Positions 1 to 18,579 of a stretch of 64,000 nt of DNA are shown here, in pieces. The first letter of the stretch is position 1. Each line of letters opens with the position of its first letter. Source of the stretch: an uncultured Thermoanaerobaculia bacterium (GTDB lineage Bacteria; Acidobacteriota; Thermoanaerobaculia; Thermoanaerobaculales; Sulfomarinibacteraceae); contig CAZXMW010000005.1 of assembly GCA_964641415.1 (NCBI GenBank), positions 14,760-78,759 on the forward strand, given 5' to 3'. The notes below the pieces were generated by a model. It did not search any database. It was not told where the DNA came from and saw only the letters and a list, made by a program, of their open reading frames with translations. A program made the translations under genes and the position numbers.

Positions 1-33
1 AACGCAGAGGCGCAGAGGCGCAGAGGCGCAGAG
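1..33. repeat. Left arm of a perfect 33-nt inverted repeat made of tandem octamer cgcagagg (about 4 units). It may be truncated by the window edge.
   Basis: Sequence 1-33, aacgcagaggcgcagaggcgcagaggcgcagag, is the exact reverse complement of 557-589. Confidence 0.9.
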
Positions 34-125
34 CCATCGCACCATCGCAAGTCGAAGCCATCGCAGCCGTCGCACCGTCGCAGTTCATCGCAGTGGTGCG
101 GAGGAGCGGAGTCATCGCAGTTCGT
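34..125. repeat. Array of about 7 degenerate catcgca/cgtcgca motifs
   Basis: ccatcgca, ccatcgca, ccatcgca, ccgtcgca, ccgtcgca, tcatcgca and tcatcgca can be read directly. The complementary motif tgcgatg recurs at 590-610 and at 16355-16362. Confidence 0.8.
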
Positions 126-146
126 TGGTGAGGGTAAGGTGTTGAG

Positions 147-551
147 ATGAGAGGCGACGAGGAGCTGAATCTGCCCGAGAATCGGGTGAGTAGGGTGGTT
201 CTTGATGCGGCGATCGAGGTCCATCGGGAGCTCGGCGGTCCAGGGCTCCTGGAGAGCGTCTACGAGGAGGCTCTCGCGTTCGAGCTTGCCGAACGAGGGC
301 TCGTTGTCAAACGCCAGCTCGCGGTTCCGATCATGTATAAAGGGCATCGCATCAGCTCCGATCTTCGTCTCGACCTGCTGGTGGAGAACCTCGTGGTGGT
401 CGAGTGCAAGTCAGTCTCGGAGTACAACCCGATCTTCGATGCGCAAGCTCTGACCTACCTTCGGATGCTCGGGCTTCGCCTGGCTCTCGTGATCAACTTC
501 GGTGCGAGGCGCGTGGTGGATGGAATCCACCGCGTGGTGAACGATCTGTGA
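147..551 (+). CDS. GxxExxY family protein (PD-(D/E)XK nuclease superfamily)
   Basis: The 134-aa ORF carries the signature GPGLLESVYEEAL (GxxExxY) and a downstream D...E.K-type core (DLLVENLVVVECKS). The size is typical of the family. Confidence 0.85.
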   Translation: MRGDEELNLPENRVSRVVLDAAIEVHRELGGPGLLESVYEEALAFELAERGLVVKRQLAVPIMYKGHRISSDLRLDLLVENLVVVECKSVSEYNPIFDAQALTYLRMLGLRLALVINFGARRVVDGIHRVVNDL

Positions 552-556
552 TCCTC

Positions 557-589
557 CTCTGCGCCTCTGCGCCTCTGCGCCTCTGCGTT
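557..589. repeat. Right arm of the perfect 33-nt inverted repeat
   Basis: ctctgcgcctctgcgcctctgcgcctctgcgtt is the reverse complement of 1-33. It starts 5 nt after the GxxExxY stop codon. Confidence 0.9.
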
Positions 590-610
590 AACTGCGATGA
601 TTGCGATGGG
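590..610. repeat. Two tgcgatg motifs (complement of the catcgca array)
   Basis: The sequence aactgcgatgattgcgatggg lies immediately before the next start codon. Confidence 0.7.
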
Positions 611-1180
611 ATGGCGGGGGTGGTGCTGGCGGGAGGGGAGGGCCGGCGCTTCGGCGGCCCCAAGGCGTGGGCGACGCTGCCCGACGGCCGCACCTTTCTC
701 GAGGCCTGCGCCGCCGCCCTGGCCGGCGCCTGGCCGCTTCTCGCGACCCTGCCGCCGGGCTCGGACGATCACGACATCGCCGACCTCGAGGTCCTGGCCC
801 TGCCGCGGCCCGGCCTCGACATGTTCGCCTCCCTGCGCCTGGGTCTCGAGCGCCTGCTCGACGACCGCGGCTGGCGCCGCGCCGCCGTCCTGCCCGTCGA
901 TCACCCCCTGGTCCGGCCGGCGACCGTCGCCGCCCTTGCCGCCGCCGAGGGACGGGCGGTGATCCCGAGCTTCGGCGGCAAGCACGGCCACCCGGTGGTG
1001 CTCGACCGCGAGGTCGCCCTCGGGATCGTGAGCGGCGAGCTTCCAGGACCGACCCTGCGCGAGGTTCTCGCTGCCGTCGGCGCCGCGACGCTGCCCGTCG
1101 ACGACCCCGGCGTCGCCGCCAACTGCAACACCCCTGCCGCCCTCGCCGCCGCCTGGGCCGCGTGTCTTGCCACCCGCTGA
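611..1180 (+). CDS. MobA/MocA-like nucleotidyltransferase (molybdenum cofactor nucleotidyltransferase family)
   Basis: The N-terminus is MAGVVLAGGEGRRFGGPKAW (the LAGGxGxRxG NTP-transferase motif) and VLPVDHPLV occurs later. ATG 611 is in frame with the longer ORF 404..1180, whose upstream part overlaps the GxxExxY gene. Confidence 0.7.
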   Translation: MAGVVLAGGEGRRFGGPKAWATLPDGRTFLEACAAALAGAWPLLATLPPGSDDHDIADLEVLALPRPGLDMFASLRLGLERLLDDRGWRRAAVLPVDHPLVRPATVAALAAAEGRAVIPSFGGKHGHPVVLDREVALGIVSGELPGPTLREVLAAVGAATLPVDDPGVAANCNTPAALAAAWAACLATR

Positions 1181-1204
1181 GGCCGGTGCTAGAGTACGCT
1201 CCGC

Positions 1205-1279
1205 GCCAACGTAGCTCAGAGGTAGAGCAAGTGATTCGTAATCACTAGGTCGTCGGTTCAAATCCGACCGTTGGCTCCA
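1205..1279 (+). tRNA. tRNA-Thr (anticodon CGU), CCA encoded
   Basis: The acceptor stem is gccaacg/cgttggc and the D arm is gctc..gagc. The anticodon stem agtga/tcact has loop ttCGTaa. The T arm is gtcgg-ttcaaat-ccgac, followed by discriminator t and cca. Confidence 0.9.
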
Positions 1280-1293
1280 CAAACAACGGACTT

Positions 1294-1323
1294 ACGCGCC
1301 GGGAAACCGGCGCGTTTCTTCTT
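1294..1323 (+). terminator. Rho-independent terminator after tRNA-Thr
   Basis: A 9-bp GC stem acgcgccgg / ccggcgcgt with loop gaaa is followed by ttcttctt. Confidence 0.7.
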
Positions 1324-1731
1324 GGGCACAGCCGGGACACATGCCAGGCCGCGAGGATCCAACCGAAGGAGGATGTCGTGGGAATCGACCGGGATGCGTC
1401 GATCGTCGGTGGTGTGGAGCAGGATTCGGTCCGGGATCGGTGCCATGGGCTGAGTGCACTCCGGTCGATCCAGCGGCTGAGCGGTCGATATCGCCGTTGA
1501 GCGGTCGTTCTGGCGGGGGAGTGGTTCTCGCGTTTTACCTTTTTGCGTCAGCGCCGGCTGCGACGATCGGGCATTCGAATCTCGGTTCTCGCGGTTTCGG
1601 GATTGTCAGAATCTTGGCAGAGGACAGACGCCGCGAGCGAGAGAACCTTTGTAGAGCCGACCGCGGCAAAGGTGCGGATTCCGGTCGACTGCGATATGAT
1701 CTCAGGCCCACATCAACTCAGGAGCAGAACG

Positions 1732-2304
1732 ATGAACATCACGGACATTCTCAACCAGGTCGGCGGTGTGCAGTCGATGGCACGCGAGCTCGGCATCTCG
1801 GAGAACCAGGCGCAGAGTGGCGCGGCGGCGCTGCTGCCCGCGATTCTCGGCGGCTTCAAGAAGCAGGCGCAGACGCAGCCGGCGGGTCTCGAGGGGCTCG
1901 GCGGCCTGCTCGGCCAGCTCGGAGGTGGCGGCCTGCTCGACTCGGTTCTGGCGCCGGAGCCCACCGACGTCGGCCGCGGCAACAACGTGCTCGGCCAGAT
2001 CTTCGGCTCGAAGGACGTCAGCCGGACCGTGGCCGGCAATGCGGCTGCGAGCACCGGGCTCGATGCCGGCGTGCTCAAGCAGATGCTGCCCATGCTCGCG
2101 ATGGCCGTGGCCGGATTCATGGCCAAGGGAGGCGCCTCCTCGGCCTCGCCGCAGTCGAAAGGCGGTGGCCTCGGAGGCATGCTCGGCGGGCTGCTCGGCG
2201 GCAGCGGCGGATCCTCGAGCGGCGTCTCCGGGCTCGCCTCCATGCTCGATCTCGACGGCGACGGCAACCCGCTCGACGATATTCTGAAGATGGTCGGCAG
2301 ATGA
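1732..2304 (+). CDS. DUF937 domain protein
   Basis: The product reads MNITDILNQVGGVQSMARELGISENQAQSGAAALLPAILGGFKK and has a Gly-rich C-terminus. An aggag RBS lies 7 nt upstream of ATG 1732. Confidence 0.7.
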   Translation: MNITDILNQVGGVQSMARELGISENQAQSGAAALLPAILGGFKKQAQTQPAGLEGLGGLLGQLGGGGLLDSVLAPEPTDVGRGNNVLGQIFGSKDVSRTVAGNAAASTGLDAGVLKQMLPMLAMAVAGFMAKGGASSASPQSKGGGLGGMLGGLLGGSGGSSSGVSGLASMLDLDGDGNPLDDILKMVGR

Positions 2305-2533
2305 CGCGACTCTCGAGCGGTTCGACGGGCGGCACGAGCCGTCTCAGACGATTTCGGCAACGAGCGCGCTGCGGACGCCGACGCCCTGCGGACCCGAACA
2401 TCGTTTGAGGGGGCAATCGACGAGCCTGGTCGCGGTGGATTGTGGGCGCGAACCGGCGCCGCCGTGGCGAGGCGGAACCGGAAACTCACTGCCGCCGCAT
2501 GGGAGAGGGAGAGGGCTCATCGGGCAAGGGGAC

Positions 2534-2617
2534 CGCCACGGCCACGGATGCGGATACGGCCACGGCCACGGCCACGGACACGGCCACGGCTACGGATACG
2601 GTCAAGGCCACGGCCAT
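2534..2617. repeat. Hexamer microsatellite array 1 (acggNN units: acggcc/acggat/acggac)
   Basis: About 14 tandem 6-nt units can be read directly in non-coding sequence. Confidence 0.85.
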
Positions 2618-2696
2618 GCGCTGCTCGGGCGCCGGCGGCCTTCCTGCTCGCCGGAGCGCACCCCGGAGATCGAGGACTGGGCTCGGTGAGTGCCCC

Positions 2697-2753
2697 CTTG
2701 AACATTGTGAGGAGCGCGATGTGAGCCGGGAGACGCTCGGCACAATGGTCAAG
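2697..2753. other. Imperfect hairpin in the unique core between the two hexamer arrays
   Basis: cttgaacattgtg (2697-2709) is complementary at 12 of 13 positions to cacaatggtcaag (2741-2753). There is an inner 5-bp pair gagcg/cgctc. Confidence 0.6.
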
Positions 2754-2840
2754 ACGGCACATCCGTCCCAAGGCGCCCGTTCCGGCCCTGGAGGGCGGCG
2801 GTCGCTTCGGCGCGCCCGTGGGGGGATCGAGGCGTATCGT

Positions 2841-3000
2841 GCGGATACGGCCACGGACACGGAGACGGATACGGAGACGGATACGGAGACGGATACGGAT
2901 ACGGCCACGGCCACGGATGCGGATACGGATACGGATACGGATACGGATACGGAGACGGATACGGATACGGATACGGACCCGGCCACGGCCACGGACCCGG
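2841..3000. repeat. Hexamer microsatellite array 2 (acggat/acggag/acggcc/acggac, about 26 units), same orientation as array 1
   Basis: The array can be read directly and it abuts the stop codon (3002-3004) of the minus-strand lipoprotein gene. Confidence 0.9.
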
Positions 3001-3001
3001 G

Positions 3002-4441
3002 CTACGAGAACGGCCGTCGGTTCAGAAAGACCCAATCGCCGTCGGCGATGTCGAGAATCTCGGTCTCGCTGTGGACAACGCTGCCGCTCGGGCCGAGGTA
3101 GTCGACGCGGAGCTCGTGTCGTCCCACCGGCAGGCGAAGCCGGGCCACCGACAGCCGGGCGGGCAGAGTCAGCCAGCAGCGGGTATCGGCGCGCTCGGTG
3201 AGGACGCCGAAGAGGTTGACCAGGACTCCGGCAGTGGCGTCCTCGTTGGCGGCCGCTTCGGTCGCGGCGTACTTGACCAGGCCGCGCAGAAAGGCCTTGA
3301 ACAGGATCTGGCCCATCTCGGCCTCGAGGGTCGCCTCGGCGCGCCGCGACAGGTCGTCCGCCGGCAGCGACTCGACGCCGGCGCCGCCGGCGGACAGCCG
3401 AACCGAGGCCACCGGGCCCGGGTCGGCCCTGCCCATGGTCGGGACCGCGACCGTCAGCCAGTACTCGATGTCGACATCGTAGGACCTGGTCCAGCCGGGA
3501 CCGGCGCGGTTGACCAGACCCCAGGCCCAGTCCTCGTTGGACGAGTAGCGGCGATCGATGTCGAGGATCGGGACGTTGAGCTTGACCTGGTCGCGGGGAG
3601 CGATCCAGCCCGACTCGAGGACGAAGACGACCTCGCCTCCGGGCTGCCGAGGTCCGGCCGCCGATGCCGGGAACAGAGCCGTGGCCGTGGCCGTGGCCCG
3701 CAGCTCCTCGACCTCGTCGCGGAAACCGAAGGTCAGCCCGACCCGCTCGAGATCACGGCCGAGATCGACAGGGGGCGCGATCCCGATGAGGTCGCGATGG
3801 GCGAGATAGGCGCGGGCTGCGTTGCGGTAGGCGACGAAGGCGTCGTTCGCCGCGCCTTCGGACTCGAAGATCATGCCGGAGAACCAGTGCAGAAAACCGC
3901 TGTCCTGCAGCTTGCGAGCGATCCTTCGATCGTCCGGCCGCTCGATCCCGCGGATCGTTGCCTCGACCGCGTCGGCAAGGGCGAGCGTCGCCTTGCGAGC
4001 CTCGACCTGGGCGGCGTCCGCGTCGCCGAGCGACAGATAGTTGAAGGCGCGGTAGAAGGGCGCCATGGCGAGCTCGAAGGGCTTGCCGCGGTAGTCGATG
4101 GTGAGGTCGTTGACGATCAGCGACGCGGCAGCCTGGGAGATGCTCCGGGTGTAGAGCTCGGCGGCCAGATCCTCGGCCGCCTGGAAGGCGGCGTTGGACT
4201 CGTCGAAGCGCCCCGCGTAGTGGAGAACGTGGCCGCGCTGGAGCAGCTCGAGCAGCCGGTCGCGGCCGCCCTGACGGGAGTCGATCCGGTCGAGGGCGTT
4301 CTGGTAGTCCCGGGCCTCGAGCATGGTGCGCAGCTCGAGGTTGGAGGCGACATAGCTCGCGCAGCCGGTCGTCAGCGAGACCGCCACGGCCAGGACGGGC
4401 GCGGCGGCCGCCATGGCGCGGCTCCTGACCCTTGGGTTCAT
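3002..4441 (-). CDS. Lipoprotein of unknown function, co-transcribed with lpoB
   Basis: A signal peptide ends in the lipobox LTTGC. The gene starts 8 nt downstream of the lpoB-like gene on the same strand. Confidence 0.7.
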   Translation of the reverse strand: MNPRVRSRAMAAAAPVLAVAVSLTTGCASYVASNLELRTMLEARDYQNALDRIDSRQGGRDRLLELLQRGHVLHYAGRFDESNAAFQAAEDLAAELYTRSISQAAASLIVNDLTIDYRGKPFELAMAPFYRAFNYLSLGDADAAQVEARKATLALADAVEATIRGIERPDDRRIARKLQDSGFLHWFSGMIFESEGAANDAFVAYRNAARAYLAHRDLIGIAPPVDLGRDLERVGLTFGFRDEVEELRATATATALFPASAAGPRQPGGEVVFVLESGWIAPRDQVKLNVPILDIDRRYSSNEDWAWGLVNRAGPGWTRSYDVDIEYWLTVAVPTMGRADPGPVASVRLSAGGAGVESLPADDLSRRAEATLEAEMGQILFKAFLRGLVKYAATEAAANEDATAGVLVNLFGVLTERADTRCWLTLPARLSVARLRLPVGRHELRVDYLGPSGSVVHSETEILDIADGDWVFLNRRPFS

Positions 4442-4448
4442 GGACGCC

Positions 4449-5051
4449 CTACGGCTTGTACTTGCTGCGGCCGACGAATTTCTTGATCTTGGTGAACCCG
4501 GCCCAGACCTTGACGTTGGTTTCGAGGTCGACCAGGTACGAGTCGACCTGGTAGTACTTGACCTCCTTGCCCTTCTCCGAGTCGAACTGGGAGTTGATCT
4601 CGCCGATCAGCATGTAATCGGCGCCGAGCTCGCGGCCCCACGCCTTCATGCTCTCCTCGGAGGCGAAGCGCTGCTGGTCCTCGCGCTCGGCTCGAAGCTC
4701 GTCGCGCTCCTCGGCGGACGCCACCACGGTGACCCGCCCGGAGTTGATGAACGAGCGCTCGAGGTCGGCGACCAGGGTCTTGACGGCAATGTGCTCCGGG
4801 GTCTTGTTGCGCAGCGTCCCGATGATCACGGCCGGTTTGTCGCCGTGCTTCATCATGTACTCGTCGACCCACGGCGTCGCGGTCGACTGGTCGACCAGAT
4901 CCCCGGCCGCGGTCTGGCTGTCGGTGTCGTTCCACCGTCCGGAGAGATCGATGGTCTCGTCGGTGGGCACTCGAGTGACGGTTGTAGAGCAGCCGGCCAG
5001 CGCCAGCACCAGAATGGTGGCGGCGATCGGTTTGGCAATTCGAGCGGGCAT
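4449..5051 (-). CDS. lpoB: Penicillin-binding protein activator LpoB-like lipoprotein (COG3417 family)
   Basis: It has a lipobox LAGC. Family-typical blocks are present: KPAVIIGTLRNKT, GRELGADYMLIGEI and YYQVDSYLVDLETNVKVW. Confidence 0.7.
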   Translation of the reverse strand: MPARIAKPIAATILVLALAGCSTTVTRVPTDETIDLSGRWNDTDSQTAAGDLVDQSTATPWVDEYMMKHGDKPAVIIGTLRNKTPEHIAVKTLVADLERSFINSGRVTVVASAEERDELRAEREDQQRFASEESMKAWGRELGADYMLIGEINSQFDSEKGKEVKYYQVDSYLVDLETNVKVWAGFTKIKKFVGRSKYKP

Positions 5052-5191
5052 GTGACCTCCCTGTGGATCCCTGCGTCGTTTCGGTCCGTGGTTCGTGGAG
5101 TATAGCCAATCCGCATCCGGCGGTTGCGGTTCAGGGTCTCGGGTGAAGTTGTATTGATCAAATTGTTCGGTTATCGTGCTGTTACTGAATC

Positions 5192-14167: not shown

Positions 14168-14332
14168 GGCGAGATGGTACCGGAAACCGCGCGCACGGTG
14201 TGAGCGCGGCCGGTCGCGATGCCCGATGACCCGAGCTCGCCTCACGATTTCGTTTCCGACCCGAGCTGCGATAGGATGCCGCGGGCCCGCCTCGGCGGGC
14301 CCGCGACTCGATGCGCTCGGAAGGAGACTCAC

Positions 14333-16288
14333 ATGGCGTTCGGACACCCGAAGGGACTCTTCCCGCTGTTCTTCACCGAGATGTGGGAGCGACTGGCCTT
14401 CTACACCATGGTCGGCATCCTGCTCCTGTACACCATCGATGCGGAACGCGGGGGCCTCGGGTTGCCGCGGGCGCAGGGCAACGAGATCTACGGGCTGTAC
14501 CTGGCGTTCGTCTACTTCACGCCGTTTCTCGGCGGCATGATCGCCGACCGCTACCTCGGGTACCGTCGATCGGTGGCGATCGGCGGGCTGCTCATGGCGA
14601 GCGGACTGTTCATGATGGGCATCCCGGGCTACACCTTCTTCGTCATGGGCCTGATCGGCCTCATCGTCGGCAACGGCTTCTTCAAGCCCAACATCTCGGT
14701 GATGGTCGGCAACCTGTACGAGCCCGGTGACCCGAAGCGCGACTCGGGCTTCAACATCTTCTACATGGGGATCAACGTCGGCGCTCTCGCGGCGACGCTC
14801 ATCGTCGCCCCGATCGTGCGGAACTACTTCGGCTGGCTGTGGACCTTCCGTGCCGCCGGCATCGGCGTGCTGTTCGCGGTGGTGCTGCTGGCGATCTTCT
14901 GGCGGTCCCTGGCCAATGCCGACCGGCAGCCCGAGCGGAGCGCAGGCGACACCTCGATGGGCGAGATCTTCGGCAAGATCCTGGCGCCGGCGTTCATCGT
15001 CGGGTTCATCGGCTACTTCGCCGCCAAGCAGTTCGAGATGCAGCTGGTCCGGCCGTCGGACTTCGGTTTCCTGGTCGGGATGATCCCGGTGGTCATCTTC
15101 TTCGTCCGGCTCGGGCTCACCGCCAATGAGGAGGAGCGCCCCGGGCTGCTCGCCCTGCTGCCGATCTTCGTCGCCGGCGGCGCCTTCTTCATGATCCTCC
15201 ACCTCAACGGCAGCGCCATGACCCAGTGGGCGCGCGACTACACCGACCGCAGGCCGGGGGTCGCCGCCAGCGTCCCGCTGATCGGGCAGATTCAGCAGGA
15301 TGCCCTGCCCAGCTACTACCTCAACGCCGGTCAGGACGTGCCCCGGCCCCATCCCGACAGCCTGCTCGTGGTGGCCTCGTCGGAGATCGCCAACCAGTTC
15401 GGTCAGAGCCGGATGCGGGAGAGCGCGGTGGCGACCCTGGACGGCTTCGCCGGCATCTCCGTCGTGCGGGTCGGACCGAAGGGCTCGGGTCAGGACCTCG
15501 ACTCCGCCTGGCTGGACCGGGCGGTCAAGGTCTACCCCGACGACGAGGTCAATGTCCGGACCGAAACCGGTTCCCACGGCGAGAAAATCACCACCGTCGC
15601 GCTCGGTGACGGTGCGGTGCCGACCGGCCAGGTCGTGCTGCTCAGGGAGCTCTCGGACGGCGTCCGGATCCCGGTGTTCGTCGTCGACGAGGCGACCAGG
15701 GATGCCATCTACGGTGGCTTCATCGCGCGCTACGGCCGCCCGCCCGACTACTTGCCTCCAGGTCGCTTCCTGCAGGTCGTCAACGCCGAGGTCTACCAGA
15801 GCTGGAACCCGTTCTGGGTCATCTTCCTGACCCCGGTCGTGGTCTGGTTCTTCGGCTGGAGGCTCAAGCTCGGCAAGCCGGTACCGACCGCTCACAAGCT
15901 GCTCTACGGCATGCTGCTGACCACCGCCGCGCTGCTCATCATGGCGGTCGCGGGGTCCCAGACGGACGCCGGTGCGGTCAAGGTGGCCGGGTTGTGGATG
16001 GCGATCTTCTACCTGGTGATCACCCTCGGCGAGCTCTGTCTGTCACCGATCGGGCTGTCGTTGGTGACCAAGCTCGCGCCGCCCCGGCTGGTCGGTCTCG
16101 CGATGGGCGGATGGTTCCTGGCGACCTCGATCGGCAACAAGTTCTCGGGCTTTCTGGGTGCGGTCCAGAATCACATGGAGCCCATGTGGTTCTTCGTATT
16201 CCTGGCCGGGCTGGCGGCCGTGGTGGCGACCTTCATCTTTCTCGTGCTGCCCAGGCTCGACCGCGCAATCAAGAAGTACGGAGCATAG
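14333..16288 (+). CDS. Proton-dependent oligopeptide transporter (POT/PTR2 family)
   Basis: The N-terminus is GHPKGLFPLFFTEMWERLAFYTMVGILLLY, followed by FTPFLGGMIADRYLG (PTR2 signatures). An aaggag RBS lies 7 nt before the ATG. Confidence 0.85.
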   Translation: MAFGHPKGLFPLFFTEMWERLAFYTMVGILLLYTIDAERGGLGLPRAQGNEIYGLYLAFVYFTPFLGGMIADRYLGYRRSVAIGGLLMASGLFMMGIPGYTFFVMGLIGLIVGNGFFKPNISVMVGNLYEPGDPKRDSGFNIFYMGINVGALAATLIVAPIVRNYFGWLWTFRAAGIGVLFAVVLLAIFWRSLANADRQPERSAGDTSMGEIFGKILAPAFIVGFIGYFAAKQFEMQLVRPSDFGFLVGMIPVVIFFVRLGLTANEEERPGLLALLPIFVAGGAFFMILHLNGSAMTQWARDYTDRRPGVAASVPLIGQIQQDALPSYYLNAGQDVPRPHPDSLLVVASSEIANQFGQSRMRESAVATLDGFAGISVVRVGPKGSGQDLDSAWLDRAVKVYPDDEVNVRTETGSHGEKITTVALGDGAVPTGQVVLLRELSDGVRIPVFVVDEATRDAIYGGFIARYGRPPDYLPPGRFLQVVNAEVYQSWNPFWVIFLTPVVVWFFGWRLKLGKPVPTAHKLLYGMLLTTAALLIMAVAGSQTDAGAVKVAGLWMAIFYLVITLGELCLSPIGLSLVTKLAPPRLVGLAMGGWFLATSIGNKFSGFLGAVQNHMEPMWFFVFLAGLAAVVATFIFLVLPRLDRAIKKYGA

Positions 16289-16421
16289 TGTTGAGTTTTG
16301 AGTGTTTAGTTTTTAGTTCCATCGCACATGAGTCCTTTCGCGGTGGAATCACGCTGCGATGGAAACTCAAAACTAAACACTAAAAACTGAGAACTGAGAA
16401 CTGAGAACTGAGAACTGAGAA
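16289..16421. repeat. AT-rich imperfect inverted repeat with a ccatcgca/tgcgatgg clamp and (ctgagaa)x5 heptamer array. It fills the whole convergent intergenic gap.
   Basis: The left arm is gttgagttttgagtgtttagtttttagtt-ccatcgca and the 28-nt centre follows. The right arm is tgcgatgg-aaactcaaaactaaacactaaaaa plus five ctgagaa units (16387-16421). Confidence 0.85.
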
Positions 16422-16422
16422 C

Positions 16423-18363
16423 TCATTGGCTCTTGCCCTTGAGGCGGTCGAGCGCCCGGTGGAGGCGCCACGCCTTGGTGCGCTCCATGGCCCCGATCAG
16501 CGCACCGAGCCGCTCGATTTCGGCGTGCAACCGCTCGATCTCGGACGCTCGTTCGTCGCACGCGATCTGCAGGGCCGTCTCCCGCTCGCCGAGACTCTCG
16601 ACCTCCGTTCGAAGCTCCCCGATCAGCTGTTGGCGCTCGCCGATGGCGGCGTTGGCCGCGGCGAGGTCGGCGCCGTGCCGCCTGACCTCGGCGGTCAGGC
16701 GTTCGCGTTCGGCGCGCAATGCCTCGACCTCGCCGTTGAGGCGGTGAGAGGCGTCGGCCGCCGCCGCGTCGGCAGCGCGTACCTTCGCGATGTCGCGCCG
16801 CGCGGCGTTCGCCGCCTCGCCGGCGGTCACCGCCTCGGCGCGCAGGGTGTCGACGACCCGGGCGACGACCTCGGGCCCGATCAGGTCGGCGTGACGGCCG
16901 ATGACCGCCGCCTTGAGGCGAAGGAAGTCCGCCCGACGGCGGGGGCTCTCGCCGAGCACATGGTGAGCAGCGCCCCGAAAGTGCCGGTACTCGGCGGTGA
17001 CCCGAGGCAGGTGGTGGAACGGAACCAGCGCGGCGAGCCGGATCAGGAAGTCCCAGTCCTCGAAGAACTCGAGCTCGGGGTCGAAGGGTCCCGCCCGGCG
17101 CGCCAAGGACAGGTCCATGATCAGGGTGTTGAACGGAATGTAGTTGTCGACGAGGAGCAGCTCGGGGTCGAAGTCTCTGCTGTACGGAAGTCGTCGTTCG
17201 ACCTCGCTCCAGCCGCCCTCCGGGCCGAGCTCGTAGATGCCGACGGCGGCGTCGGTGTAGGCGACGCGGACGTCCGCCGCGGCCACCAGACCGACCAGGG
17301 TGGCGATGTGCTCGGGCTCGACGAGATCGTCGTCGTCGAGAAAGCAGAGATAGGCCCCGGTGGCCGCGTCGACCCCGGCGTTGGCGGCGGCGGCCCGGCC
17401 CAGGGTGCGGCCCGTTTCGACCCGGACGACCGGGAAGGGAAAGTCGGCCGGCACCGTGGGCTCGGCGCCGCCGTCGTTGACCAGGACGATCTCAAGCCGG
17501 CGGTAGCTGCTGGCGGAGAGACTTGCCAGAGCCTCGGCGAGCAGGTCCGGGCGGTCCTTGGTTCGGACGACGACGCTGACGGTCGGACCCGCGGTGTTTG
17601 CCGCGAGCTCGACCATTGCCCCGAGCCGACGTGCCAGCTCGGTCGGGCCCTGGGTCACGATGTCGTTCAGGCCGATCTCGCAGTAGGCCTCGGCGGCGAC
17701 GGTGCCGGTCGGCAGCGACAGTGCCCGGAATCGGCGCATCCCGAGGGCAGCCTCTCGGTAGTTGTGCAGCTCGAGTTGGCTCGCGTGGGCCTCGATGGCG
17801 GCTGCCAGCCGGTCGAGCTCGTCGCTGACGTCGATCAGCAGGTTGGGATAGCTCGGGTGGTTGACCTCATAGAGCAGAATCCGGCACCCGGCCATGATCT
17901 CGTCGAGCTCGGTGCCGCCGCGCAGGGAGGTCAGGGCGAGATGGAGGGCAGTGAAGGCCGCCCGGTGATCGGTGGTGATCTCGCAGGGCGACACCGACAG
18001 AATGAGGTCAGGACGAACGTCGCGGATCGCTCCGGAGGCCGTTTCGGCGGCGGTGTCCACCCAGGCGGCGAGCTCACCGTCAGGGATCGACAGGACCTCC
18101 ATCCGGGAGATGCCCAGGACGCCGAGTCCCTGTCGGGCCTCGGCGCGGCGGCGCGCCCCATAACCCTCTCGGTCGGTGGTGACCTCGCTGCCCCCCGACG
18201 AATCGGTCAGGTAGACGATGCGGATGTCGGCGCCCCGGTCGGCGAGCTGGACGAGCAGACCGCCGCAGCCGAGGACCTCGTCGTCGAAGTGTGGGGCGAG
18301 CACCAGCACGCGTCGGGCGCCGACCGTCGTCGTGGTCGTCGGGGGCATCGGGTCGAGCTGCAT
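16423..18363 (-). CDS. Fusion protein: PIG-L/LmbE-type deacetylase, GT2 glycosyltransferase and a C-terminal coiled coil
   Basis: The PIG-L part reads VLVLAPHFDDEVLGCGG. The GT2 part reads VSVVVRTKDRPDLL...VLVNDGG ... FLDDDD. A heptad-rich tail is present. ATG 18363 precedes the PIG-L domain. Confidence 0.8.
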   Translation of the reverse strand: MQLDPMPPTTTTTVGARRVLVLAPHFDDEVLGCGGLLVQLADRGADIRIVYLTDSSGGSEVTTDREGYGARRRAEARQGLGVLGISRMEVLSIPDGELAAWVDTAAETASGAIRDVRPDLILSVSPCEITTDHRAAFTALHLALTSLRGGTELDEIMAGCRILLYEVNHPSYPNLLIDVSDELDRLAAAIEAHASQLELHNYREAALGMRRFRALSLPTGTVAAEAYCEIGLNDIVTQGPTELARRLGAMVELAANTAGPTVSVVVRTKDRPDLLAEALASLSASSYRRLEIVLVNDGGAEPTVPADFPFPVVRVETGRTLGRAAAANAGVDAATGAYLCFLDDDDLVEPEHIATLVGLVAAADVRVAYTDAAVGIYELGPEGGWSEVERRLPYSRDFDPELLLVDNYIPFNTLIMDLSLARRAGPFDPELEFFEDWDFLIRLAALVPFHHLPRVTAEYRHFRGAAHHVLGESPRRRADFLRLKAAVIGRHADLIGPEVVARVVDTLRAEAVTAGEAANAARRDIAKVRAADAAAADASHRLNGEVEALRAERERLTAEVRRHGADLAAANAAIGERQQLIGELRTEVESLGERETALQIACDERASEIERLHAEIERLGALIGAMERTKAWRLHRALDRLKGKSQ

Positions 18364-18418
18364 CGTGGTTGAGATAGTACACCGCTTCGACGACCAACAC
18401 GCGGGGGAACGCCGGTCA

Positions 18419-18579
18419 CCTGAGGTGAACGGTTCTGCCGGATGAGATGTGCCGAGATCGTGATGGGCTGATGGTTGCCGAAAACGGAGGCATACCCTTC
18501 GACGTGTCGAGTCTTTTCGCAGCCATCCAGGGCGCAGGAAATGTGGTGCAGATCGCCGGTGAGAATCGCTCATCTCAGG
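18419..18579 (+). repeat. Copy A of a dispersed, roughly 160-nt repeat family with 10-nt terminal inverted repeats
   Basis: It aligns end to end with 31191-31350, with about 30 mismatches and one 1-nt indel by eye. The termini are cctgaggtga and tcatctcagg. Confidence 0.85.

Follow-up and report, generated by a model that had tools for sequence, protein, structure and literature searches.

Among the elements described in bacteria, the closest in architecture to the one reported here are the intervening sequences (IVSs) of 23S rRNA genes, which in Leptospira, Coxiella, Xanthomonas and Brucella loop out a small open reading frame (ORF) of the S23p/PF05635 family in a long stem formed by inverted ends. 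Their stem regions carry short tandem repeats of variable copy number, their distribution is sporadic and horizontally scattered, and they are regarded as selfish. In the Coxiella IVS, two to three tandem GACAGAT heptamers, variable between strains, lie upstream of a decaying S23p ORF, and excision by RNase III has been shown experimentally (Warrier et al. 2016, PMC4990558). IVSs had been identified more than 25 years before that study, in which their origin and mobility were stated to be unexplained and the role of the ORF unclear (PMC4990558). The element described here lies at the left end of a 64,000-nt stretch of DNA (below, the window) from an uncultured Thermoanaerobaculia bacterium (contig CAZXMW010000005.1, positions 14,760 to 78,759), whose bases 1–610 are most of an insertion cassette, with the left end missing at the window edge. 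The cassette encloses a GxxExxY gene between a DUF364 gene, known from relatives, and a MobA-like gene. With a probability of about 0.5, we read it as a selfish hairpin cassette of the IVS type that resides in a protein-coding operon rather than in 23S rRNA.

The differences from IVSs are several. The window element is located between two protein-coding genes and not inside a 23S rRNA gene (at helix 25 or 45), its cargo has a PD-(D/E)XK nuclease fold (PF13366) unrelated to PF05635, and its repeats are octamers that share a conserved CGCARAG core. Its ORF is under purifying selection, whereas that of Coxiella is decaying, and RNase III excision, demonstrated for IVSs, is for the window element a prediction.

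The arms of the cassette are built of octamers, (CGCAGAGG)n on the left and (CCTCTGCG)n on the right, around the 134-aa GxxExxY gene (Table 1). The two arms are exact reverse complements over 33 nt (100%), while 100 shuffles of bases 1–700 produced no perfect inverted repeat longer than 14 nt; a first-pass annotation of this DNA, which had reported a perfect 33-bp octamer stem enclosing the whole gene, was correct on this point. CGCAGAG starts at positions 3, 11, 19 and 27, and CTCTGCG at 557, 565, 573 and 581. The second motif pair, given as about seven catcgca and two tgcgatg, was likewise recovered: C[AG]TCGCA occurs seven times (starts 35, 43, 59, 68, 76, 86 and 113, span 35–119), five times as exact CATCGCA and twice as CGTCGCA, and TGCGATG starts at 593 and 602, 3′ of the A′ arm. 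Across the window the 16-mer octamer pattern was observed six times against 0.2 expected, and CCATCGCA ten times against 3.6. The right end abuts the start codon of the next gene, as had also been noted, with ATG 611 directly following TGCGATGGG. Repetitive sequence at a window edge could suggest chance low complexity or an assembly artefact. We regard the likelihood of this as negligible: the shuffles speak against it, and it is refuted by the recurrence of the same structure in independent assemblies (JGI, ENA, NCBI), to which complete genomes can be added.

The left continuation of the element was read from two contigs, L088 and L089, whose GxxExxY proteins belong to the 90% cluster of the window protein and are 98.5% and 97% identical to it, respectively. 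Upstream of the arm both carry an additional CATCGCA block (...CATCGCAGCATCGCAACTTAACGCAGAGG...), and both extend the 5′ arm leftward with TT into TTAACGCAGAGG, followed by more octamer blocks. In L088 the sequence 5′ of the arm reads ...TTTCATCGCAGCATCGCAACTTAACGCAGAGG... and the reverse complement of the 3′ side reads ...CATCACATTCATCGCAGTTAACGCAGAGG...; here octamer blocks with a common CGCA core make up all 366 nt of the spacer that follows the DUF364 gene, and L089 has three tandem 5′ modules. In the predicted RNA fold of L088:3780–4470, about 50 pairs form an outer stem that is unbroken apart from two small bulges (ΔG −320.7 kcal/mol, z −5.6). Because the CATCGCA block lies 5′ of the arm in L088 and L089, B′ pairs outside A/A′; the order of the element is B-A-B-gene-A′-B′ and its pairing is nested, not interleaved. 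The order A-B-gene-A′-B′ proposed originally therefore stands inside the window but fails for the element as a whole, from which the edge removes a further B block, and the interleaving of the second motif pair was an artefact of that edge.

When metagenome contigs were searched with the DUF364 protein, 39 loci were recovered, and the states at the junction between the DUF364 and MobA-like genes were mapped by tblastn. Homologues 75–83% identical show the same synteny (mevalonate-pathway genes, DUF364, GxxExxY, MobA-like) and the same kind of arm. The junction is occupied by the 134-aa type of cassette in the window, L001–L007 and L088–L090, and by a 126-aa type in L091, L092, L096–L098 and L109, the latter with arms of CGCAAAGG or CGCAATGG units nested cleanly as A-B-gene-B′-A′. 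It is empty in L094, L100, L103 and L112, where the DUF364 and MobA-like genes overlap and octamers are absent; L099, L101 and L105–L108 carry decayed cassettes, and in L093 the arms alone are left. On the DUF364 tree, empty, occupied, replaced and decayed states are interleaved. The replacement is visible in the comparison of L001 with L097, which are 92.9% identical at the DNA level in DUF364 and 84.9% in the MobA-like gene, versus 64.7% in the GxxExxY gene.

The boundaries of the unit are given by L096, which is occupied, and L102, which has no cassette; their DUF364 genes are 92.6% identical. A 554-nt segment (L096:811–1364, AGACTCACGCGATGG...CCATTGCGTTTTGTCT) is missing from L102, and its boundaries coincide with the outer repeat ends (AGAC...GTCT). 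Once it is removed, the L096 flanks rejoin as ...CGA/CGTGA..., exactly as in L102, with no target duplication at this one junction. Since the indel ends at the repeat ends, the unit gained or lost is the whole repeat-bounded hairpin. A TTAA target duplication was considered and rejected, as the empty sites lack TTAA and the L096/L102 junction lacks a duplication. The two operon genes are separated by an inserted, discrete cassette, which is what the first-pass annotation had supposed; the check it proposed, a comparison of orthologous MobA-like neighbourhoods, turned up empty sites rather than a uniformly occupied site.

These states also bear on the possibility that GxxExxY is an ordinary gene of the locus, neither inserted nor mobile, and that its hairpin serves regulation or stability as attenuator, terminator, mRNA stabiliser or translational coupler. 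Such a gene would account for the DUF364–GxxExxY–MobA-like synteny kept in several relatives, for 5′ arms that resemble Shine-Dalgarno sequences and 3′ arms that resemble their complement, and for the terminator-like placement of a second hairpin in the window, which sits between convergent genes. It would not account for empty sites at which the host genes overlap, for different cassette types in near-identical backgrounds, for decayed copies or for the same cassette in unrelated operons of many phyla, and no terminator-like T-run was found. We regard this explanation as very improbable, and it is strongly disfavoured.

At the empty sites the MobA-like gene begins at a GTG inside the last DUF364 codons, and the insertion has therefore separated this start from the gene body. 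In all six of the 134-aa-type versions examined, the GxxExxY stop is overlapped by a GTG or ATG whose frame stays open through the 3′ arm. L001, L004, L005 and L089 show the same overlap as the window, and the gene caller chose it as the start except in L088. The A′ arm has four octamers in every version and B′ differs in length by multiples of three. L088 departs from the window by two synonymous changes, TGC>TGT and GGG>GGC. In L089 the position of the window ATG 611 is ATC, and in the remnant L093 the GTGA and the 3′ arm are still in frame (206 aa). To judge by these reading frames, the MobA-like gene probably now takes its start region from the 3′ arm, with ATG 611 of the window as an alternative start. 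At another of these junctions, L101 (3360–4055), a 231-aa ORF results from a deletion that joins the first 43 GxxExxY residues to the MobA-like gene in frame.

The window ORF matches TIGR04256 (GxxExxY) with 130.2 bits (cut-off 35) and PF13366 (PDDEXK_3) with 123.4 bits (cut-off 22). The motif residues G33, E36 and Y39 and the PD-(D/E)XK residues D76, E86 and K88 are invariant in an alignment of 20 homologues, and the AlphaFold2 model (pLDDT 92, pTM 0.86) predicts a restriction-endonuclease-like alpha/beta fold, with weak Foldseek matches to Cas4 SSO0001, AdnAB, the archaeal splicing endonuclease and lambda exonuclease. Synonymous codon differences among orthologues dominate over nonsynonymous ones (9:2, 17:4 and 55:28), and the protein is therefore maintained by selection. 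Motif and model point to a nuclease-fold cargo with an intact catalytic motif, features overlooked in the statement of the first-pass annotation that no gene present explains the mobility of the cassette. The family is large, with 24,341 representatives at 50% identity (E ≤ 1e-3). In a survey of the PD-(D/E)XK superfamily, PF13366 is listed with unknown function and multiple transfers between divisions (Steczkiewicz et al. 2012). The PADLOC and PHROGs models gave no match to the GxxExxY protein and the viral contigs searched contained no relatives, so a role in anti-phage defence or a phage affiliation was rejected. Some library proteins have tandem double GxxExxY domains (e.g. P0125, P0128 and P0130; 263–295 aa).

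The arms recur with the gene. We examined 80 loci from GTDB genomes encoding proteins 59–72% identical to the query, from Planctomycetota, Chloroflexota, Verrucomicrobiota/Kiritimatiellia, Myxococcota, Geobacter/Geomonas, Acidobacteriota, Armatimonadota and others. In most of them the best inverted repeat between the two flanks has a period of 8, (TT)AACGCA[A/G]AG[G/A]CGCA[A/G]AG..., with scores of 15–36 versus 8–12 for shuffled sequence. In the 200 nt next to the gene, CGCARAG/CTYTGCG motifs reach a density of 0.4–0.8 per 50 nt, compared with 0.017 farther out. Purine-rich arrays of the CGCARAG type (sense strand) lie upstream and their complement downstream in 61 of 81 loci, and the reverse polarity was found in none of the 81. 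The pattern extends to members only 42–47% identical, from Bacteroides, Bernardetia and Sphingomonas: their octamer arms are related, and they are placed co-oriented inside operons (Table 1). Judged by these motifs, the flanking repeats are one conserved octamer family, CGCARAG(R) with TTAACGC ends, across phyla. The suggestion that other GxxExxY genes be inspected for flanking inverted tandem repeats was thus borne out, both in the 61 loci and in these distant members, and the repeats are not peculiar to each gene.

Octamers of the same kind also occur apart from the gene. Stand-alone, ORF-less hairpins are present at other intergenic sites in L040, L066, L049, L075 and L083, with stems of about 35–45 bp and AT-rich loops. 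Arms can grow by modules: in a Kiritimatiellia metagenome-assembled genome (L033, 3399–4096), a 45-nt 3′ arm module, CCTCTGCGTCTCTGCGTCTCTGCGTTAAAACCCCACAACCCACAA, is present in about 16 extra copies (697 nt) relative to the close relative L039. L033 also has five 5′ modules upstream, and the amplification is minisatellite-like. Covariation of the arms among orthologues was considered as proof of compensatory evolution and set aside, because the argument is weakened by the wholesale replacement of cassettes. In Sorangium sp. So ce1000, two cassette copies 98% identical (L026 3435–5377 and L020) lie 5 Mb apart in one genome, and one of them has an insertion of about 1.9 kb that begins exactly inside its 3′ arm. 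These paralogues were rejected as evidence of transposition, since the duplicated region is a rearranged mosaic that is uninterpretable in this respect. In Sphingomonas parapaucimobilis (L129 1471–1899, between fabD and fabG) the annotated GxxExxY coding sequence passes its usual C-terminus (..RRIVND) and continues through the 3′ arm, so that the arm is read as coding and adds the tail YTPIASSRLRVNQRIGG.

A small nuclease-fold ORF that is present or absent between conserved genes in close relatives also recalls free-standing homing endonuclease genes. Were GxxExxY such a gene, its product would cut empty or rival alleles, the cassette would be copied by repair, and the arms would be by-products or recombination handles. 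The presence/absence polymorphism found between the flanking genes, which are conserved and translationally coupled, is of this type, as are allele replacement in close relatives, the location of distant members likewise inside housekeeping operons and the lack of target duplication. We nevertheless consider homing improbable: homing genes do not normally have conserved inverted tandem arrays, and offer no counterpart to these or to the dispersed ORF-less hairpins, whose presence at many other sites would be left unexplained. The many different insertion sites argue against a single cleavage specificity, and no homology to a known homing endonuclease is shown.

The architecture is not confined to GxxExxY genes. 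At one intergenic spot in Geomonas, L078 has an ORF-less hairpin of the CGCAAAG type (4253–4425), and the related L086 has a 121-aa ORF instead (4297–4659), which matches PF05635, the ‘23S rRNA-intervening sequence protein’ (129.7 bits), and TIGR02436, four helix bundle protein. This gene is bordered by inverted GGGGCTA/GGGACTA arrays. Clear inverted purine-rich/pyrimidine-rich arrays also border five of six plasmid-borne PF05635 genes (Table 1), and for the sixth, in Nostoc PCC 7120 (L135), a downstream CTGCCCT array alone was seen. The resemblance to rRNA intervening sequences that the first-pass annotation had remarked on is real. The window element has the long stem of inverted ends around a loop that characterises IVSs. 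Its ORF belongs to PF13366 and not to S23p/PF05635, and in window 1–3200 there was no rRNA match, a tRNA being the sole Rfam match. We rejected the cassette as an rRNA IVS in the strict sense: it is not in rRNA and its ORF is not PF05635, and since these two defining features are lacking it falls outside the strict class.

Cyanobacterial short tandemly repeated repetitive (STRR) sequences are a further point of comparison. They too consist of tandem units of 7–8 nt in intergenic DNA and in structural RNAs, and the arrays beside the PF05635 genes of Nostoc, Stanieria and Geminocystis look STRR-like. To our knowledge, STRRs have been described without an associated gene or hairpin logic; the arrays described here are inverted and paired around an ORF, and the window's host is not a cyanobacterium. 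We tentatively entertain a wider view, possible but doubtful at present, in which GxxExxY cassettes, IVS-protein cassettes and ORF-less hairpins would form one unrecognised superfamily of bacterial mobile elements, with classical 23S IVSs and STRR arrays as special cases or debris. Repeat-built hairpins would then move without target duplication, and the factor supplied by the element would be either a PD-(D/E)XK nuclease or a nucleic-acid-binding four-helix bundle.

Several observations point to a step at the DNA level: octamer core and TTAACGC tips are conserved across phyla, the arrays keep a strict polarity, ORF-less copies exist and the junctions are free of target duplication. The nuclease may be involved in this step, and given that PF05635 cargo occurs in the same kind of hairpin, it may not be the sole engine. 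Taken to its end, this leads to a rival in which the cassette is a DNA-level mobile element, of the transposon or miniature inverted-repeat transposable element (MITE) kind or like repetitive extragenic palindromic (REP) sequences and REPINs with their REP-associated tyrosine transposases (RAYTs). GxxExxY would be its own nuclease and would mobilise gene-bearing and ORF-less copies alike by recognising their octamer arrays and TTAACGC ends, whether in duplex, single-strand hairpin or cruciform form, and the RNA stem would be incidental. Such a rival draws on the conservation of core and ends across phyla with a protein 60–70% identical, the dispersal of ORF-less hairpins of the same octamers in the same genomes, the absence of reversed arrays (0 of 81), arm mismatches without G·U bias (see below), indel boundaries at the repeat ends without duplication, the amplification of arm modules (L033 versus L039), and intact catalytic residues under purifying selection. 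Against it, a transposase of a known class is absent, and transposition of DNA by nothing more than a PD-(D/E)XK core of 126–134 aa is not known; the unrelated four-helix-bundle cargo in the same kind of hairpin indicates that the nuclease is not a universal engine; identical copies at separate sites of one genome were not found, except for the rearranged Sorangium duplication; and viral contigs yielded no relatives. On balance we judge this rival unlikely, if serious enough to be kept in view.

The individual systems that it invokes fit in part. RAYTs are relatives of HUH tyrosine transposases, and REPs are single palindromic units with species-specific sequences. REP/REPIN systems with RAYTs share with our cassette a conserved gene flanked by inverted short repeats, dispersed gene-less hairpins and the lack of target duplication, and in relatives of the window the flanking inverted repeats do occur as gene-less hairpins as well. 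They differ from the PD-(D/E)XK cargo, the tandem octamer arrays and the octamer core common to many phyla seen here, and no relative of an HUH (Y1) transposase was found in the cassette, PD-(D/E)XK being the sole Pfam/NCBIfam match. MITEs and transposons with terminal inverted repeats (TIRs) are alike in their terminal repeats with conserved tips, their ORF-less derivatives and their insertion polymorphism. They are unlike the cassette in that it has no DDE or other known transposase, its sole ORF being the 134-aa PD-(D/E)XK core, in that its arms are tandem arrays that expand and contract, and in that a target-site duplication was not seen when L096 was compared with L102, one junction.

Our preferred reading, the IVS-type selfish cassette, adds an RNA-level step. 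No promoter-like or terminator-like site was found in the L088 cassette and the genes are co-oriented; read-through RNA would therefore form a duplex of 35–50 bp. A perfect RNA duplex of 33–35 bp is a canonical RNase III substrate, and cleavage of the cassette stem by RNase III, as the first-pass annotation had suggested, is plausible. Under this reading the cassette, without a promoter or terminator of its own, would be co-transcribed with the operon, its RNA arms would pair, and RNase III would cut the duplex as it does in the Coxiella IVS. The conserved nuclease, the octamers and the TTAACGC termini would cooperate at the DNA level in spreading or retaining the cassette. The insertion would have deprived the MobA-like gene of its original start, located inside the 3′ end of DUF364, and MobA-like translation would now proceed from the GTG at the GxxExxY stop through the 3′ arm, or from ATG 611 where present.

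A number of results weigh against this reading. The arm mismatches (2,529 aligned positions in 72 loci) comprise 105 G·U, 96 A·C and 133 transversions (p = 0.57). With no G·U excess, the complementarity looks DNA-level or freshly generated rather than the product of selection on an RNA stem; the spectrum is one of neutral decay from a perfect repeat, where a selected RNA stem would be enriched in G·U, and selection of the arms as an RNA stem was rejected on this comparison (105 versus 96). A scan of 87 loci for conserved 16S and 23S motifs placed no GxxExxY cassette in rRNA, and the 64-kb window contains one cassette and one hairpin of other units. The polymorphism could have its source in homologous exchange through the flanking genes rather than in transposition; the junction is resolved to the base in one case (L096/L102), and the related loci come mostly from metagenome assemblies. 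The coding reading of the 3′ arm is based on few substitutions and on the choices of the gene caller. As to the nuclease, the best Foldseek matches, all of them PD-(D/E)XK nucleases, are weak (E 4e-3, TM about 0.5), and a sequence search of the PDB found no matching solved structure.

What is new here is that an element resembling an IVS lies outside rRNA and carries a nuclease-fold gene, for which we found no prior description. In the openly searchable literature, the scope of our search, with subscription-only literature outside it, neither the octamer strings nor GxxExxY or STRR arrays tied to such hairpins were found. The accessible portions of the literature naming GxxExxY do not describe flanking repeats, and nothing relevant was found linking STRRs or tandem repeats to IVS proteins. 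That the architecture of an IVS exists outside rRNA, around a cargo that differs from S23p and is clearly functional, bears on the old question of IVS origin and mobility. The empty, occupied, replaced and decayed alleles at one junction form a natural series for comparison and experiment, and the GxxExxY family, with some 24,000 clusters at 50% identity, gains a conserved DNA partner in the CGCARAG octamer arrays ending in TTAACGC. For annotation, the arms are sometimes taken as coding sequence of the neighbouring genes.

Table 1. Features of the window cassette and arm units of cassettes at other loci.
Locus	Feature	Position	Strand	Description
Window	5′ arm A	1..33	+	AA(CGCAGAGG)x3 CGCAGAG; truncated by window edge
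Window	Inner octamer array B	34..125	+	Seven C[AG]TCGCA units (CCATCGCA type), common CGCA core, spacing ~8 nt
Window	Spacer	126..146	+	Purine-rich, Shine-Dalgarno-like run GGTGAGGGTAAGGTG 5′ of ATG; putative function
Window	GxxExxY / PDDEXK_3 gene, 134 aa	147..551	+	Profile matches; purifying selection
Window	GTG overlapping TGA stop (GTGA)	548..550	+	Candidate coupled start, MobA-like frame via 3′ arm, 210-aa product
Window	3′ arm A′	557..589	+	(CTCTGCGC)x3 CTCTGCG TT; exact complement of 1–33
Window	TTAA	588–591	+	At 3′ arm end; TTAAC precedes TGCGATG units
Window	Outer 3′ array B′	593..609	+	TGCGATG x2; partner is CATCGCA block left of window start (L088 sequence and fold)
Window	MobA-like nucleoside triphosphate (NTP) transferase gene (PF12804)	611..1180	+	Host gene 3′ of insertion
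Bacteroides finegoldii	GxxExxY cassette, radA-X			CACAGAGG units
Bernardetia	GxxExxY cassette, ade-X			CACAGAGA units
Sphingomonas	GxxExxY cassette, fabD-X-fabG			CGCGAAGG units; 3′ arm within annotated coding-sequence tail
L134, Nostoc	PF05635 cassette			Arm unit GTAGGGA
L136, Stanieria	PF05635 cassette			Arm unit GGCAGAR
L137, Geminocystis	PF05635 cassette			Arm unit AAGGGAA
L138, Gemmatirosa	PF05635 cassette			Arm unit AGGGCAGG
L139, Picosynechococcus sp. PCC 7003 plasmid	Four-helix-bundle cassette	401–757		AGGAGATA/TATCTCCT arms; lies within a type III-B CRISPR operon, inserted between cas10/cmr2 and cmr3

Farther along, the window holds other repeat-built features. The second hairpin (16287–16423) is ORF-less and lies between the convergent ORFs 14219..16288 (+) and 16423..18573 (−), with a DNA fold z of −6.3. 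Heptamers make up the outer arms, with (AGTTTTG/AGTGTTG)n pairing to (AAACTCA/AACTGAG)n; the inner arms, CCATCGCA/TGCGATGG, repeat the B motif of the cassette, and the loop is 28 nt. Two long hexamer arrays at 2535–2616 and 2842–2995 (GCCACG/GATACG and CGGATA/CGGACA/CGGAGA types) are in direct orientation around a core of about 225 nt; they lie between ORFs 1543..2304 (+) and 3002..4441 (−), and no convincing ORF was seen there. A tRNA-Thr (CGT) is located at 1205–1279, 25 nt after the MobA-like gene, and in L088 a promoter-like site (5027–5055) lies just upstream of the position matching this tRNA.

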